This document shows, piece by piece, positions 51,080 to 56,030 of a stretch of DNA of 64,000 bases (its first letter is position 1; each line of letters opens with the position of its first letter). Both the position numbers and the translations under genes were made by a program. The notes beneath the pieces were generated by a model. It saw nothing but the letters and a program-made list of their open reading frames with translations, made no database searches and had not been told where the DNA came from. The DNA comes from a virus. The DNA lies in IMG/VR virus record IMGVR_UViG_3300027759_000063, positions 1-64,000 of that record; one strand, given 5' to 3'.

Positions 51080-51200
51080 GTTGCCTATGTTATGTTGCCT
51101 ATCTAAATGTTTAGATCTTGGTTGCCTGTGACTCACAAACAAAAAAGCGCAAACACTGTAGTAGTATATGCGCTTTTTGTCTACGTGTCAAGTGTATTTA
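51080..51200 (-). promoter_or_regulatory. SSB control region: TAAATA, TTGACA-17-TATACT, hairpin, 3x AGGCAAC
   Basis: TATTTA 51195, TGTCAA 51186, AGTATA 51163; GTTGCCT at 51080, 51094, 51121. Confidence 0.75.
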
Positions 51201-51202
51201 TA

Positions 51203-54200
51203 TCATCTGAGCAAAGCCAGTGATTTTATTCTTGCCAGAAGCGCATCGCCTTCTTGAATGTCCGTTTCTTTGCCTTCGTAGTATGAACCGGTCATTGCAC
51301 TGTTGCTGTTGATTGGATCATCTACGCCTTCGCCCATGCTGTAGGGCATGCCCACTGCACCACCATCTTCCTGCATCCCTGGCTGCACAGGACGAAGTGC
51401 TTCTTTATTAACTTTAAGTGGGTCTCTAACACCGCCGCCGCCTGTTTTGGATATTCCATACCACTCTGCGCCACCAAGACCACCATCTGCAGGAAATGGT
51501 TTGGCTTCAAATTTGTTTTGATATTCGCCAGTTCCAACGGTTACATATTCGTGATCAACAGGATCATAGTATATGGTAAACTTATCATAGACCATATAAG
51601 GTCTTAATTCTCCTGCGGCTTTTTTCTTCTTCTCTGTGCCAAATAACTTTCCAAGGAAACCTTCTTCCATGTAACATTCAGCCAAGCCGTGTTCCGGGCA
51701 GTATTCACCTTCAGCTGTCATATTGCAGGAGCCTTCACTCACAGGTTTTTGCTGTTGTTTTTGTAATTTCTGGCGGGCGTTGTATTCTTTATCTGGATCA
51801 CTAAATCCTTGGTCACCTAATTTGTGCCCTGCATAAGCACCAGCAATACCGCCAGCCACAGTGCCTAGGGCAGGAACCACACTGCCCAATCCTGCACCAG
51901 CAAGTCCTCCGGCCAGGGCACCTTTCCAACCTTCGTCAAGACCGATGTCTTGGGCAAAGCGATCACTGATCCATTCATGAGGATCACCATCTCTGGCTTT
52001 CTTTGTGCCATAGGGCATGTCATCAAAGTAGTAGTCATACAGCGCATCATACAGTGCATCACTCATGTCACCGGTTTGAGTGAAGTCTTTGACGTCACGT
52101 CGGAATGTGTCTTTGATGTGTTCCAGTGTGCTGCCTGTGGAATCTGTCAACACACTTTCTTTCACAGGTACGCCGGCGTATTTCAGCATTTCAGCCAATT
52201 CACGATCTTGCTCAAATGTACTCATGTTGTCGCCTTCTGCCACACCTTTGCCGTCACCTGCACTAGGTATCATTTTCCATTTTTTAGGATTAGCTACTGC
52301 GTTATCGTGTTGCGCTCTAACCCGTGAGTTCTCATCTTCGGGCGCTTTCCATACACCGTCCCAACCAAATGATCCCGATTGAGCTCCTGTTCTAGGGGTG
52401 CCAGACTTACTAAAGTCTTTGTTATCTTTTCTATTCTTTTTTACTGCGGCAGCAAGTTCATCACGTCCAGCTTGGTTATAAGGTCTGCTTAACTGAGTTG
52501 TAGGAGCACCATATGCACCCTGGCGTTGCGTATGCTTCCAGTCTGGTACTACGTAGCCAGCACGAACAGCTTCATCCATTTCACCTTCTGCCATGCCTTG
52601 TTGTATATCATGAATATTCACAGTGGTCATATCACCATTTGATGCCTTGACTGTGACAGTGTTGCCTTCTACAGAGACCACAGTCCCGTATTGAGTTTTC
52701 ATGCCAGGTTTGATCTGTGAGTCACCGGAGTCTTCTGCTACCCCTTGCTGTTGTGGTCCTTTGATGGCCTGCAACAATGCTCGTGCAACCACACGGTCTT
52801 TTTCTTTTTCTTCTTCAGGCAACTGAGCATAATTTTGTTTCATCAACTGTGCTCGTTGTTGAAGCTTGGCTTCTAGTTTGCCGGCTGCTGCCAACTTTGC
52901 TGTGTCATCGAACTGGTCTGGATCTTGCACAAATGCTTGAGCAGTGGTGTTCCAACCTTTGTGAATAGCATCACTGATGGCTTCAATGTCTGTGACGCCT
53001 TGATCAATCATTTGTTTGGCATAGGCTGCTGACTTCAAGTTGGCTTGCCATCCAAATGTGTTGCCTGGTGCGCTACGTCCATAGCCATATGCTTTGTCCA
53101 GTGCTTCATCACTGATGGTAGCCAGTTGTTGAACACTGAGTTGGCCAGCGTTTTCTTTCACAGGGGGTGCTGTGTCTTGTGGCACATCAGCAGGTTCTGC
53201 CTCAGTGCTTTGAGGGGTTTGTACACCCAGTTCGGCCAGTCTGCGTTGCACATCTGAGTCGTCCCAAATGTTGGCACGGCCTTGACTCTTTTCAGCTAAG
53301 TCGTTAAGAATGTCAAACAGTTCATCATCGCCCACAATGTCATACAACAACTCGGTGGCATTGGTGGCATCAGGACCAACGATCAATTCTGCACTCATGA
53401 GTTGATTGAGTTTTTCCATTTGGTCAGGAGTTTCTGGCAGGGCCCAGGTGCCTTCACTTAGATTGTTGATCCAGCTTTCAAATATTTCGGCTTCTTTCAT
53501 GTTGTTTCCTTGTTGTTGTATCTTGGCCAGTGTGGGCAAGGCAGCTTCAATTCTAGCGTCCAAGGTCTGTTCCACAAACAGGTCGCGTAGATTTTCTACC
53601 AGGGCTTCGGCTTCACCAATGTGATCAGGAGCCCAGGTTTCAAAGTATGCTTGATAGCCACGTGGGCTGCCAAGATGCTTCATTGTTTCTTGTAGATTAT
53701 GATAGTATTGTCTTGCGTTTTCCACCAGCTCTTGTGTGACACCTTCGTATACACGGCGGTGTTGCGCACGGTTGAATCGACTTAGCACAGCCATTTCACG
53801 CACAATCTCTGTTATGTGGTTGCCACGTACATCGTATGGTCGACCACCTTGGCGCACATGTTCCAGCATGGCTCTACCGCCTGCTAAACTTTTGAATCCC
53901 AGTCGAAAACGTTCTTGGTCAGCTGTTTCAATAAACAAACTTTCCACATAGCGAAAACGCTTGTCCTCTTCGCCTAGCTGACGATTGTGATTGATTACTA
54001 GTCGGGCTTGTGTCTGCTCGCCCATGTAGCTGGTCTTGCGATTGCCGTAGTAGCCTTCAAACAGGCCTTCCTTGATGGCAGCAATGCCAGCAAGTGTGTG
54101 CTTGAGTTGATTGATGTCTTTGGGGCTCCAGGTTACACCATTACTGGCCGCATGGTTGCTGAGTTGCTCTAAAAAGTTGTACCATTCTTCTTTGTCGTCA

Positions 54201-54430
54201 GGTTCCATGCCCCGGCCCAAATTGTCGCCATAAAACAACCCCAAATCGTCATCACCGATTACAACAACTGCTGTGCCGTAGTTTTTGCCTGTTTCGGCCA
54301 CGTAGTCAAATTTTATAGTTTTGGCGTCGCCGGCTTCGGCAGGTTGCCCTTGCTTGTCAAAGTATTCAGGGTCAAAATTCTTTGTGACCAGGAAATCTGC
54401 TAGATCTTGAGATAATGCTTCTTTTGCCAT
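51203..54430 (-). CDS. large modular putative internal head protein/polyprotein (~1075 aa)
   Basis: Repeated GVAE/GMAE/VKE/LDE/VSE linkers; RyR-like, KOW-like, glycine-zipper and Cys/His modules; late motif 7 nt before ATG. Confidence 0.65.
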   Translation of the reverse strand: MAKEALSQDLADFLVTKNFDPEYFDKQGQPAEAGDAKTIKFDYVAETGKNYGTAVVVIGDDDLGLFYGDNLGRGMEPDDKEEWYNFLEQLSNHAASNGVTWSPKDINQLKHTLAGIAAIKEGLFEGYYGNRKTSYMGEQTQARLVINHNRQLGEEDKRFRYVESLFIETADQERFRLGFKSLAGGRAMLEHVRQGGRPYDVRGNHITEIVREMAVLSRFNRAQHRRVYEGVTQELVENARQYYHNLQETMKHLGSPRGYQAYFETWAPDHIGEAEALVENLRDLFVEQTLDARIEAALPTLAKIQQQGNNMKEAEIFESWINNLSEGTWALPETPDQMEKLNQLMSAELIVGPDATNATELLYDIVGDDELFDILNDLAEKSQGRANIWDDSDVQRRLAELGVQTPQSTEAEPADVPQDTAPPVKENAGQLSVQQLATISDEALDKAYGYGRSAPGNTFGWQANLKSAAYAKQMIDQGVTDIEAISDAIHKGWNTTAQAFVQDPDQFDDTAKLAAAGKLEAKLQQRAQLMKQNYAQLPEEEKEKDRVVARALLQAIKGPQQQGVAEDSGDSQIKPGMKTQYGTVVSVEGNTVTVKASNGDMTTVNIHDIQQGMAEGEMDEAVRAGYVVPDWKHTQRQGAYGAPTTQLSRPYNQAGRDELAAAVKKNRKDNKDFSKSGTPRTGAQSGSFGWDGVWKAPEDENSRVRAQHDNAVANPKKWKMIPSAGDGKGVAEGDNMSTFEQDRELAEMLKYAGVPVKESVLTDSTGSTLEHIKDTFRRDVKDFTQTGDMSDALYDALYDYYFDDMPYGTKKARDGDPHEWISDRFAQDIGLDEGWKGALAGGLAGAGLGSVVPALGTVAGGIAGAYAGHKLGDQGFSDPDKEYNARQKLQKQQQKPVSEGSCNMTAEGEYCPEHGLAECYMEEGFLGKLFGTEKKKKAAGELRPYMVYDKFTIYYDPVDHEYVTVGTGEYQNKFEAKPFPADGGLGGAEWYGISKTGGGGVRDPLKVNKEALRPVQPGMQEDGGAVGMPYSMGEGVDDPINSNSAMTGSYYEGKETDIQEGDALLARIKSLALLR

Positions 54431-54440
54431 AGTGGTGTAT

Positions 54441-56030
54441 TTAGCGCAACATTGATATGAACGGCATTGGTTCAATGATGTTGTCGCCGTGATCTTTCAT
54501 GTGTGTGTCCAGTTCAGCATGATAAGTCTGTAACAGCATGAGCATGCGCACCACCAACAACGAACTCATCACAAGATCATCAGTTTCTCCAGGTTTGGCA
54601 GCATAACTACCGCCAGATGCAACAAAAGTTTTGAGCTCTGAGATCAAGGGTCTGCTGTGCAGTCGCATGCGCCCAGACTCCACAAGGATTTTAAACTTGT
54701 TACAGGCAGTGAGTTTGGCCTTGTTTGTGGTGTTGAATCCTTTGCGGAATCTACGTCCTGTAGTGCCTGTTACTGAGTTGTCGCTTAAAAAGTAGCCACG
54801 GATGTTTTCTTCCCCATATTCGTTTATTGAAATCAAGGCAGCTTCACCAATGGTGTTGTTTTCTACGCTGTAATAAATTTTCTTGTCATCTTTTACCACA
54901 TCATATAATTCATTCACAATGTCTACCAATAGCTTGATCTGTGTGGGAATGTCTGTTTTGTTGTGGCGCCATTCAGCCACTTGCTCTGTGGTTTCTGCTT
55001 CAAACACCTGTATGGCAGCAGGATCGCCTCCGGTGCCTAGACTTGGATCCAAGGCCACAATGTATATCTTGTCTTTGGCAGGAGTTTTGTACCAACGCAC
55101 TTGTCCTGTGCGGCGGTTGGGTTCTATTCCTTCCAGATCAATCAATTTGGTAGGAGCAATCAGTGTTTCATCATTGATGACGAAATCACAATCCATTTCT
55201 CTGCGGAATCGATCTTCTCCCAGTTGTGCCAGCTGCTCTGCACCCCAGGTATCGTCACGATCGGGGTGTTCACGCCAGTAACTTCTAAACGCACGAAATC
55301 CATTGATACCTAACTTGGTGGTGTTGCCATGCTCGTCCTGCGTTTTGTTTGCTCCTTTCCACAGCAGTGCAAACTGATCTTCGTCTGAGTTGGGAGTACT
55401 TGTGATAATGGCCTTACCACCTGTGGCCAGGGTGGGTGAGATAGAAGTCCAGAACTCTCGAGCAATGGTGGGTCGCACAAACGCAAATTCGTCAGCATAC
55501 AAGAGTGAAATACTCATACCCCGACCAGTTGTTTCAGTAGTGGTCTGCGCCACAATACGTGATCCGTTTTCAAATTCCAAGCTGTTCTTGTTGTAACTGG
55601 TGGCACCGGCTCTGATATGATTGGGGCACAGTTCATATGCATACCGAATACGTTGCATGATCTCTTGTGCGCCTGTGTATTTGTGTGCGGCCACAAGGAT
55701 AGTTGAGTCTGGCACAAACATTGCATACCACAGCAGGTAGCCGGCGGCCGATGTTGATTTGCCGGTTTGTCGAGGCATTAGACTTATTGAATATCTGTAG
55801 TTGTGATAGGTTTCAATCAGTCGTTTCTGATATTCAAATGGATGATACAACATCTTGCCGCGTGTGGGGTGTTGAATCATAAAGAAGTTGTCCATGAAGT
55901 ACAAGGGACCTGTCACAGGATCTGCGCAGGCAGCAAACTCAACAAGTTCTTGTTCAGTGTAGACTTCTTTGCGGTGTGGTGCCTTGACCAGCACCGTTTC
56001 TAGATTCTTACTTGGTGTTGGTGAAATCAT
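54441..56030 (-). CDS. terL: terminase large subunit (T4 gp17-like)
   Basis: PFEYQ, MPRQTGKS, LLYADEFAF, ITSTPN, ALDPSLG, DDLVM. Confidence 0.95.
   Translation of the reverse strand: MISPTPSKNLETVLVKAPHRKEVYTEQELVEFAACADPVTGPLYFMDNFFMIQHPTRGKMLYHPFEYQKRLIETYHNYRYSISLMPRQTGKSTSAAGYLLWYAMFVPDSTILVAAHKYTGAQEIMQRIRYAYELCPNHIRAGATSYNKNSLEFENGSRIVAQTTTETTGRGMSISLLYADEFAFVRPTIAREFWTSISPTLATGGKAIITSTPNSDEDQFALLWKGANKTQDEHGNTTKLGINGFRAFRSYWREHPDRDDTWGAEQLAQLGEDRFRREMDCDFVINDETLIAPTKLIDLEGIEPNRRTGQVRWYKTPAKDKIYIVALDPSLGTGGDPAAIQVFEAETTEQVAEWRHNKTDIPTQIKLLVDIVNELYDVVKDDKKIYYSVENNTIGEAALISINEYGEENIRGYFLSDNSVTGTTGRRFRKGFNTTNKAKLTACNKFKILVESGRMRLHSRPLISELKTFVASGGSYAAKPGETDDLVMSSLLVVRMLMLLQTYHAELDTHMKDHGDNIIEPMPFISMLR

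Follow-up and report, generated by a model that had tools for sequence, protein, structure and literature searches.

The window analysed here spans 64 kb from the start of a 99.6-kb IMG/VR fragment (record IMGVR_UViG_3300027759_000063) of an uncultured freshwater jumbo phage, with a CheckV completeness of 29%. It carries a single unbroken open reading frame (ORF), which runs on the minus strand from 54430 to 51203 and encodes 1075 amino acids (aa) from an ATG, followed by a stop codon; this ATG is supported as the start by the homologues, which open with MAKEAL or MTMEAL. Behind a conserved N-terminal domain, the product is a string of small modules, each closed by a short motif ending in glutamate. 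According to our analysis, it is fairly probable that the ORF encodes a head-packaged polyprotein, cut by a prohead protease of the phage T4 gp21 type into internal, probably injected, proteins. An earlier note on this sequence had described a beads-on-a-string protein of ~1075 aa, and this was confirmed by the single ORF, by the islands of confidently modelled structure between disordered linkers and by the shuffling of modules among homologues; the pattern proved broader than the note had described.

Architecture of the polyprotein

The protein has three parts: a conserved N-domain, folded islands spaced by disordered [V/M/L/I]-x-E↓G linkers (the arrow marks the proposed cut), and a conserved C-terminal tail. 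Its features are the following:

51203-54430, minus strand: whole ORF including the stop codon, 1075 aa, directly after terL
53153-54430, minus strand: conserved N-domain, aa 1-426; confident fold to ~410, then a disordered spacer LGVQTPQ..PPVKE↓
52733-53152, minus strand: slot A, module 1, aa 427-566; six-helix domain, ends QQGVAE↓
52586-52732, minus strand: slot A, module 2, aa 567-615; small beta (KOW/SH3-like) domain, ends QQGMAE↓
52235-52585, minus strand: slot A, mini-unit GEMDE↓ (aa 616-620) and module 3 (aa 621-732), ends GKGVAE↓
51932-52234, minus strand: conserved core, aa 733-833; GDNMSTF..ELAE↓MLKYAGVPVKE↓, then a helical domain SVLTDSTG..GLDE↓
51734-51931, minus strand: slot B, glycine-zipper module, aa 834-899; ends KPVSE↓
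51662-51733, minus strand: conserved Cys/His motif GSCNMTAEGEYCPEHGLAE↓CYMEE↓, aa 900-923
51368-51661, minus strand: slot C, accessory module, aa 924-1021; beta island 943-966, ends PGMQE↓
51251-51367, minus strand: conserved short units DGGAVGMPYSMGE↓ and GVDDPINSNSAMTGSYYEGKETDIQE↓, aa 1022-1060
51206-51250, minus strand: conserved C-terminal amphipathic basic helix GDALLARIKSLALLR, aa 1061-1075; proposed prohead-targeting tail

A conserved frame, made up of the N-domain, a helical core domain of 75 aa, the Cys/His motif and the C-terminal helix, holds three variable slots with small folded modules, and every module closes with [V/M/L/I]-x-E, usually with G or P at P4 and G at P1'. Slot B is filled by alternative modules in other homologues, and the accessory module of slot C is present in only 4 of 169.

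The N-domain had been put at ~340 aa; its conserved, confidently folded part proved longer (~410-426 aa), and in an AlphaFold2 model built on 89 homologues residues 1-410 mostly have a predicted local distance difference test score (pLDDT) >90. The confident islands behind it lie at residues 430-558 (helical), 572-610 (three strands), ~771-830 (helical, pLDDT 91-95), 941-980 (beta) and 1060-1073 (helix), and every proposed linker falls in a stretch of pLDDT <50 between confident islands. Several of the modelled modules (49-140 aa) are folded small domains with pLDDT ~90, and others, among them module 3 with its one helix, are mostly of low confidence; the "peptide cocktail" of the earlier note thus understates the cargo.

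The KOW-like barrel proposed earlier corresponds to a three-strand beta island (residues 582-605, pLDDT ~90), so that the beta structure stands and the KOW identity stays weak (Pfam KOW/SH3, E=0.026). The glycine zipper was recovered by Pfam (E=0.018 in this protein, down to 6e-6 in relatives). Of ~269 homologues scanned, 165-167 have kept the C..CPxHG..EC motif, a putative metal site. In 10 close homologues, the Pfam matches were limited to glycine zippers and to weak hits for KOW/SH3 and PGDYG; among 46 distant members it returned LPD11 in one (E=7.7e-31), LysM in two, an OCRE domain and a SutA RNA polymerase-binding domain (E=3.4e-5). No peptidase family was found by Pfam in the protein or in these 10 close and 46 distant homologues. 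None of the LPD (large polyvalent-protein-associated), MuF, MPTase, ART and DdrB-ParB hallmark domains was found in the polyprotein at E<=1 or in the 10 close homologues, and neither the protein nor the close homologues contained Ig-like or fibre-type repeats.

The linker motif

All the linkers named in the earlier note were found in the ORF at the places it gave:

LSE, aa 324-326: inside the N-domain
VKE, aa 424-426: linker at the end of the N-domain
QGVAE, aa 562-566, ~nt 52733: linker
QGMAE, aa 611-615, ~nt 52586: linker
MDE, aa 618-620: linker
KGVAE, aa 728-732, ~nt 52235: linker
VKE, aa 756-758: linker
LDE, aa 831-833: linker
VSE, aa 897-899: linker
MEE, aa 921-923: linker
MQE, aa 1019-1021: linker
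MGE, aa 1032-1034: linker
IQE, aa 1058-1060: linker

Only LSE at 324-326 failed as a module separator, being internal to the N-domain and a module boundary in no homologue. In aa 411-1075, [LIVM]xE occurs 15 times, compared with 7.7 in shuffled sequences (P=0.006). The extended pattern [GPQKS][VMLI][AKSGDQ]E[GDANS], which was chosen post hoc, occurs 9 times in the same region against 0.52 expected, a count reached by 0 of 5000 shuffles; it is absent from the N-domain and occurs at most twice in any other ORF of the 99.6-kb record. No paralogous modules or other linker-rich ORFs were found in that record.

At 481 variable junctions among the homologues, G or P stands at P4 in 56% and G at P1' in 44%, with V (.37), M (.28), L (.22) or I (.12) at P3 and A (.31) or K (.16) at P2; Glu at P1 is given by construction, as these junctions were defined by cutting at the motif. 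An anchor independent of the motif is provided by the residue before the conserved xVLxDSTG core domain, which is Glu in 115 of 115 homologues, with V, I or L at P3 in all of them.

Shuffling and exchange of modules

A word-indexed protein search gave matches at E<=0.001 for 2043 of 8000 scored candidates, with lengths of 617-1088 aa among the 120 listed; the first ~425 residues are ~90% identical across homologues, and the remainder is variable. Clustered at 50% identity, the wider family comprises at least 1708 clusters, and the best 150 listed span 172-1442 aa. The breakpoints of BLAST alignments with the query concentrate at aa 422-427, 564-566, 613-617, 728-732, 919-927 and 1018-1022, which are the linkers, and it is exactly at PPV(K/A)E↓, QGMAE↓, KGVAE↓, KPVSE↓, GLDE↓, SMGE↓ and DIQE↓ that homologues have, lack or replace modules. 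Cutting 169 non-redundant homologues at the motif produced 154 fragment families and 125 different architectures, and the KOW-like module, as well as the module pair 10+16, was found in both slot A and slot C.

For a boundary test free of the motif, 196 unique clean insertions were taken from pairwise global alignments. Both ends lay <=4 residues from [LIVM]xE in 132 of them (67%), compared with 5.8% of random placements, and when the same shift was demanded at both ends, 69 fitted, against a null of 3.0 ± 1.6. Control motifs ([LIVM]xD/Q/K, [AGST]xE and others) bounded 0-1 insertions. A stricter version, with exact-slide placements only, retained 45 of the 196; this number is low because the aligner shifts gaps by a few residues where two linkers differ.

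A near-identical strain from another freshwater lake metagenome (Logan, run X4) lacks one module. Its 420-nt contig, with 5 mismatches, joins 52584 to 52732 and skips 147 nt, which are exactly codons 567-615, the KOW-like module between QGVAE↓ and QGMAE↓; at the joint, 7 nt fit either side. In some runs the contigs covered the gene only in part, and these gaps were given no interpretation. Contigs 90-99% like parts of the polyprotein gene were also present in a lake metatranscriptome (run X23), consistent with transcription of relatives or with DNA carry-over.

Proteins with N-domains of only 66-67% identity share several modules at 99-100% identity. Between two homologous loci (L014 and L038), identity is 70.7% across the 5' 1.27 kb and 98% across the 3' 1.43 kb, with the switch inside the conserved GDNxxTF..ELAE core module; here diverged phages have recently exchanged the whole C-terminal half by homologous recombination. 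Overall, modules come and go, change their order and pass between diverged phages, and the junctions lie at [V/M/L/I]xE↓G. The expectation of the earlier note that module indels would end at the linkers was strongly upheld by the breakpoint pile-up, the 132 insertions and the near-isogenic deletion, and this supports its idea of a cassette system within one ORF, which the shuffling and the cross-lineage transfer likewise bear out.

Linker DNA and microhomology

The linkers had also been described as similar in their DNA, and microhomology between them as the means by which modules are swapped. The likeness is present, with GCAGAAG common to three linkers of the gene. Homologues write the same linker peptide with differing synonymous codons, and since the synonymous positions vary freely, the likeness is what the peptide motif imposes. 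At clean DNA insertions the flanking identity has a mean of 4.0 nt, compared with 0.86 by chance, and reaches >=5 nt in 30% of cases (maximum 17); this is the amount that a shared G-[VM]-A-E-G peptide imposes. Swapping by linker microhomology was therefore not established, because the data fit equally well if selection retains only those junctions whose linker is intact; microhomology may help module exchange. Large exchanges, as in L014/L038, break inside conserved core modules, not at linkers. A dedicated DNA repeat acting as a recombination site was considered and rejected, as the synonymous sites of the linkers vary.

Free-standing copies and leaders

The module of aa 427-566, which folds confidently into six helices (pLDDT 91), has 464 short homologues. 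As a free-standing gene of ~147 aa it consists of the module and an N-terminal leader of ~15 aa, M-x-T-E-x-F-R-K-Y-I-D-I-I-N-E, with no other addition, and it ends right after the module, without a linker. In T4, the capsid-targeting sequence (CTS) MKTYQEFIAE (PMC8442874) is removed by gp21 (PMC9026906), and the leader of the free-standing copy parallels it and may be of the same kind. The module also lies inside dozens of unrelated large IMG/VR ORFs, nearly always with ..GVAE↓G before it and ..QGVAE↓ after it; the motif stands upstream in 52 of 54 embedded contexts. A leader ending in [LIVMF]xE at residues 7-16 was found at 30 of 44 distinct N-termini of module-bearing ORFs, compared with 22 of 197 background ORFs. 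The KOW-like module, bounded by linkers, occurs in two other protein families as well, and all three near-complete genomes (303-525 kb) that carry module 427-566 encode an S77 protease.

The same cargo domain with a removable leader, or between removable linkers, is the expected look of head cargo released by a protease. Module 427-566 offers the strongest comparative argument for the linkers being protease sites. Many unrelated large multi-module ORFs of other freshwater phages (L196, L215, L216, L237, L253, L258 and others) were also observed to open with leaders of 8-10 aa, among them MKIxEIIxE, MIIDELFE and MNFKELFE, which are similar to the T4 CTS. Head cargo of the polyprotein kind may therefore be common outside this gene family.

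The likeness of module 427-566 to RyR domains is weak. Pfam RyR (PF02026) matched free-standing copies at E=0.014-0.14, below the cut-off, and gave no match on the polyprotein; an ESM Atlas cluster named "RyR domain-containing" scored 0.76 against the module, with all Atlas leads <0.9. In VIA, the Z scores of 4.4 for 3nrt (25% identity), 4.0 for 4erv and 3.8 for 6uhs were all within noise, and a Foldseek search with the module found nothing. The free-standing RyR-like gene is located in several loci (L184:5001-6515, L185, L188, L194) directly upstream of a gene that starts M..IVVMPGGFHPFHAGH and has a nucleotidyltransferase-like HxGH motif; in other phages (L203, L211, L260-L263) the RyR-like module and the HxGH part are fused in one ORF, with the module on the C-terminal side.

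Prohead protease and C-terminal tail

The prohead protease gp21 of T4 cuts after Glu in L/I-x-E; cargo proteins are trimmed once, and core proteins are chopped many times (PMC9026906). Judged by sequence, the linker motif fits this site, with a departure to V/M at P3. In the relatives the gene order is portal, small core proteins, S77 protease, gp22-like scaffold and gp23-like capsid protein, and PF03420 (Peptidase_S77) was detected at E=3e-25 to 1e-24 in G004, G003 and G001, beside the scaffold and gp23-like genes. Of these, G004 encodes both the S77 protease and a polyprotein whose N-domain is 90% identical to that of the window. The gp23-like capsid protein of the relatives has YLKE↓NASSG at the expected maturation site, and in G001 the scaffold shows the second-highest count of linker-like motifs. 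The 99.6-kb record itself ends inside its gp23-like major capsid gene (98979-99593, minus strand), and its scaffold and protease genes should lie just beyond the contig end. Release by a prohead protease, as proposed in the earlier note, is well backed by its context, namely by the motif, which fits gp21, by S77 in relatives and by the CTS-like leader; the cleavage itself we infer.

A basic amphipathic helix forms the C-terminus in 80 of 80 IMG/VR relatives with a complete 3' end and in 53 of 149 distant representatives. It reads (L)ARIKSLALL(R/K), or DRLKELSGM and DIKRLAGM in distant members, and the gp22-like scaffold of the relatives ends in ..IDLKRLAGL, with single-residue variants in two records. 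Within the 220 kb of G001 that were examined, the C-terminal pattern [ILM][KR]x[LIM][ASL][GLA][LMI] is confined to the scaffold and the polyprotein. Scaffolding proteins such as that of P22 bind the coat protein via C-terminal helices. The shared basic tail may represent a core- or capsid-binding signal, and its likeness to the scaffold suggests a possible incorporation signal. Similar basic amphipathic tails were noted on three prohead-core proteins, namely the scaffold (..IDLKRLAGL), the S77 protease (..EVKRLIRELKI) and the polyprotein (..LARIKSLALLR); this comparison was drawn from L088:6024-7769 (G001), L081-L086 and L181-L183.

The N-domain and its genomic setting

The N-domain is orthologous to the virion structural proteins gp278 of Pseudomonas phage PA5oct and gp274 of Serratia phage BF (phrog_13484, E=7.4e-10), and PA5oct gp278 is annotated as detected in the virion by electrospray ionization tandem mass spectrometry. 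A tblastn search with the protein matched 27 jumbo-phage records; the matches in cultured jumbo phages cover only aa ~120-320 of the N-domain, with 25.7-31% identity over aa ~120-310. At the DNA level, the phage collection gave no near match. The invariant residues of the N-domain are G52, H148, H191, G195, G196, D200, G258 and Y259, and E154, R158, R160, E168, E173, R174 and H205 were seen to be near-invariant in homologues down to ~30% identity. In such a "structural" protein, H148, H191 and D200, together with H205, hint at a possible metal or catalytic site. Its fold had no match at E<=0.001 in a Foldseek search against the PDB, and the best VIA-wide Z score (7.2 over 81 residues) was within noise.

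The terL gene occupies 54441-56030 on the minus strand, with its stop codon at 54441-54443, and a gap of 10 nt separates it from the polyprotein gene, the final gene of the operon. Further downstream follow genes for a gp32-like single-stranded DNA-binding protein (SSB) and a UvsX-like recombinase. The order TerL, homologous gene, SSB and UvsX is kept in Serratia phage BF (gp274, 429 aa) and, loosely, in PA5oct (gp278, 496 aa). The terL stop codon overlaps a TAAATA element (GCGCTAAATACACCACTATG) 13 nt upstream of the polyprotein ATG (54431-54443, minus strand), and no Shine-Dalgarno sequence is visible in the same stretch ahead of this ATG; translation of the polyprotein may be coupled to that of terL. 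A near-consensus sigma-70-type promoter, TTGACA-17-TATACT (11/12), lies at 51163-51191 on the minus strand, between the polyprotein stop codon and the SSB gene. The SSB gene therefore has its own promoter, and the polyprotein gene closes the terL operon. No terminator-like hairpin was found between this stop codon and the SSB gene.

Proposed mechanism and alternative explanations

We propose that the gene product would be a late-expressed head protein of a freshwater jumbo phage with a T4-like head. It would enter the prohead core, perhaps via its scaffold-like tail, and a gp21-type prohead protease would then cleave behind every exposed Glu. This would set free the N-domain, which in cultured relatives belongs to the virion, together with small proteins whose assortment differs between strains. 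The latter would stay in the head, as T4 internal proteins do, and would probably be injected with the DNA, acting on the host. Only junctions that retain a cleavable linker would pass selection, so that the protease site would become the universal joint of the cassette system; short coding identity at the linkers may help illegitimate recombination. Cutting of the sites by the S77 protease inside the prohead, with release of strain-specific small internal proteins, seems to us reasonably likely, and the further step, in which these proteins are injected and act on the host, is a possibility that we hold with less than even confidence.

Several observations weigh against this mechanism. Cleavage and packaging of the polyprotein are both inferred, and no S77 protease gene is located on the 99.6-kb fragment, which is 29% complete. 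The P3 residue of the linkers is mostly V or M, compared with the L or I preferred in T4, and the final IQE site is S/T-Q-E in some homologues. The N-domain holds 19 [LIVM]xE motifs, which would need protection by folding, and the polyprotein has no N-terminal CTS, as no [LIVM]xE occurs before residue 44. The likeness of the tail to the scaffold is a short pattern noticed post hoc, and in a comparison of two clades the scaffold tail was unchanged in the second, which gives no support from covariation. The polyprotein extension is absent from cultured phages, as the protein search of the phage collection matched the N-domain only. Pfam and PHROGs are nearly blank on the protein and on the close and distant homologues. 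Finally, some indels ignore the linkers: in P0034-type homologues, a 61-aa insertion (QG(S/T)FKHHM..KMIMSK) at aa ~740, inside GDNMSTFEE..ELAE, has no bounding motif.

One alternative is a multi-domain "polyvalent" virion protein that stays uncleaved and is packaged and injected whole, with the [VM]xE↓G stretches as no more than flexible joints between domains, conserved in composition. Its variable multi-domain architecture beside packaging genes fits the polyvalent proteins, some of which, such as the virion RNA polymerase of N4, are packaged unprocessed (PMC5512222); one distant member carries LPD11, and the BFVD relatives include proteins named after large polyvalent-protein-associated domains. 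Plain linkers, however, have no need of an invariant Glu combined with a hydrophobic residue at P3, such as the Glu that precedes the core domain in every homologue compared, and control motifs with D, Q or K never bounded insertions. Moreover, the free-standing copy swaps its linker for a CTS-like leader ending in I-N-E, and the motif equals the specificity of the protease family that these phages encode. We therefore regard an uncleaved protein as unlikely.

The tail and the motif-rich scaffold of G001 would also suit a sacrificial prohead-core protein, whose C-terminal region is chopped and expelled like T4 gp22/gp67/gp68 or the SPN3US propeptides, the modules being filler that tunes core assembly or head volume and is not delivered to the host. 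There is precedent for core proteins and propeptides that are cut at several places (PMC9026906, PMC10052503). Against this stand the confident folds of several modelled modules and the preservation of some modules at 60-100% identity across lineages between which they moved horizontally. One module is kept as a free-standing gene in many phages and within unrelated proteins, which argues for a function of its own, and so many architectures among the 169 proteins are what conflict-driven cargo typically shows, the T-even internal proteins being an example (PMC3012670); a sacrificial role is accordingly improbable. Cutting after injection or by another protease, or display of the variable part outside the capsid as a decoration or adhesin, could account for LysM in two of the distant members, for glycine zippers, which could insert in membranes, and for the weak PHROG match (E=6.8e-5) of the glycine-zipper region to a tail-associated lysin. 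The lack of Ig-like or fibre-type repeats and of a peptidase domain in the protein, the fit of the motif to S77 specificity, and the scaffold-like tail and CTS-like leaders of sister proteins, which point to the head interior, leave this explanation with very little probability.

Comparison with known systems

Three known systems come nearest: the CTS-bearing internal proteins of T4, the polyvalent proteins, and the head proteins of phiKZ-like phages that undergo multiple cleavage. The T4 internal proteins are small, highly diverse and targeted to the prohead core; they are freed by cleavage after hydrophobic-x-Glu, kept in the head and injected (PMC9026906, PMC3012670, PMC8442874). The likeness to IPI, IPII and IPIII lies in the phage lineage, which has gp21-, gp22- and gp23-like genes, in the ~15-aa leader ending in I-N-E on the free-standing copy of module 427-566, and in the hypervariable repertoire, here 125 architectures in 169 proteins together with cross-clade transfer. 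In T4, however, the cargo is encoded by separate CTS-bearing genes, whereas here it is concatenated behind a structural domain of 410 aa; the polyprotein lacks an N-terminal CTS, its P3 is mostly V/M, and its cleavage and injection are predictions.

The polyvalent proteins (Iyer et al. 2017, PMC5512222) are likewise large, with many unrelated domains in variable architectures, and are encoded beside virion and packaging genes; they were proposed to be delivered with the DNA, and the authors drew the analogy to polyproteins (PMC5512222). The occurrence of LPD11 in one distant member of the present family (1 of 46) adds to the likeness. Here, however, the protein has no hallmark domain and no embedded peptidase, the modules would be released in trans, by the head protease cutting at short linkers of uniform type, and they are much smaller (mostly 15-150 aa, a few up to ~195) and mostly orphan.

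In the phiKZ-like phage SPN3US, the giant-phage head proteins gp53 and gp54 receive multiple x-x-Glu cuts by the prohead protease gp245 (PMC10052503) and share with the polyprotein long regions with many copies of the motif. Their cut parts, in contrast, are N-terminal propeptides with a motif of the A-x-E type that mostly leave the head, and no modular, swappable cassettes have been described there. PA5oct gp278 and Serratia BF gp274 have the homologous N-domain and the same place after TerL and before SSB/UvsX, but with their 429-496 aa they lack the polyprotein extension and the conserved tail. The core proteins T4 gp22/gp67/gp68 resemble the polyprotein in the several protease sites predicted here and in the C-terminal basic amphipathic helix, which is like that of the gp22-like scaffold of the relatives; unlike them, the polyprotein is not a coiled-coil or acidic core protein and holds folded, horizontally exchanged domains. 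What would set it apart from all these systems is the concatenation of cargo behind a structural domain and the use of the site of a trans-acting head protease as the universal cassette junction, of which we found no description in the literature searched.

Implications

A broader idea, which we put forward only tentatively and regard as somewhat doubtful, is that freshwater phages with T4-type heads share a "cargo currency," in which small effector domains move freely between free-standing genes with a CTS-like leader and places within several unrelated polyproteins, and the protease site serves both as release signal and as cassette junction. If this is true, one gene could deliver injected proteins in a strain-specific combination that can be re-assorted rapidly; this would be the phage equivalent of polymorphic-toxin cassette systems, built on a protease site and not on a conserved toxin-delivery domain.

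Head-carried, injected proteins are first-line weapons against host defences, and outside T4 and phiKZ-like phages such cargo is hard to recognise because it consists of small orphan proteins. If the proposed reading is correct, [V/M/L/I]-x-E↓G between folded islands would be a sequence rule that marks head cargo in uncultured freshwater jumbo phages, a very abundant group, and the present data would provide a catalogue of >150 candidate fragment and module families. The family would then also be a natural example of a protease site used as a universal joint for domain shuffling, and the locus suggests a route for loading foreign proteins into large capsids as cleavable concatemers.

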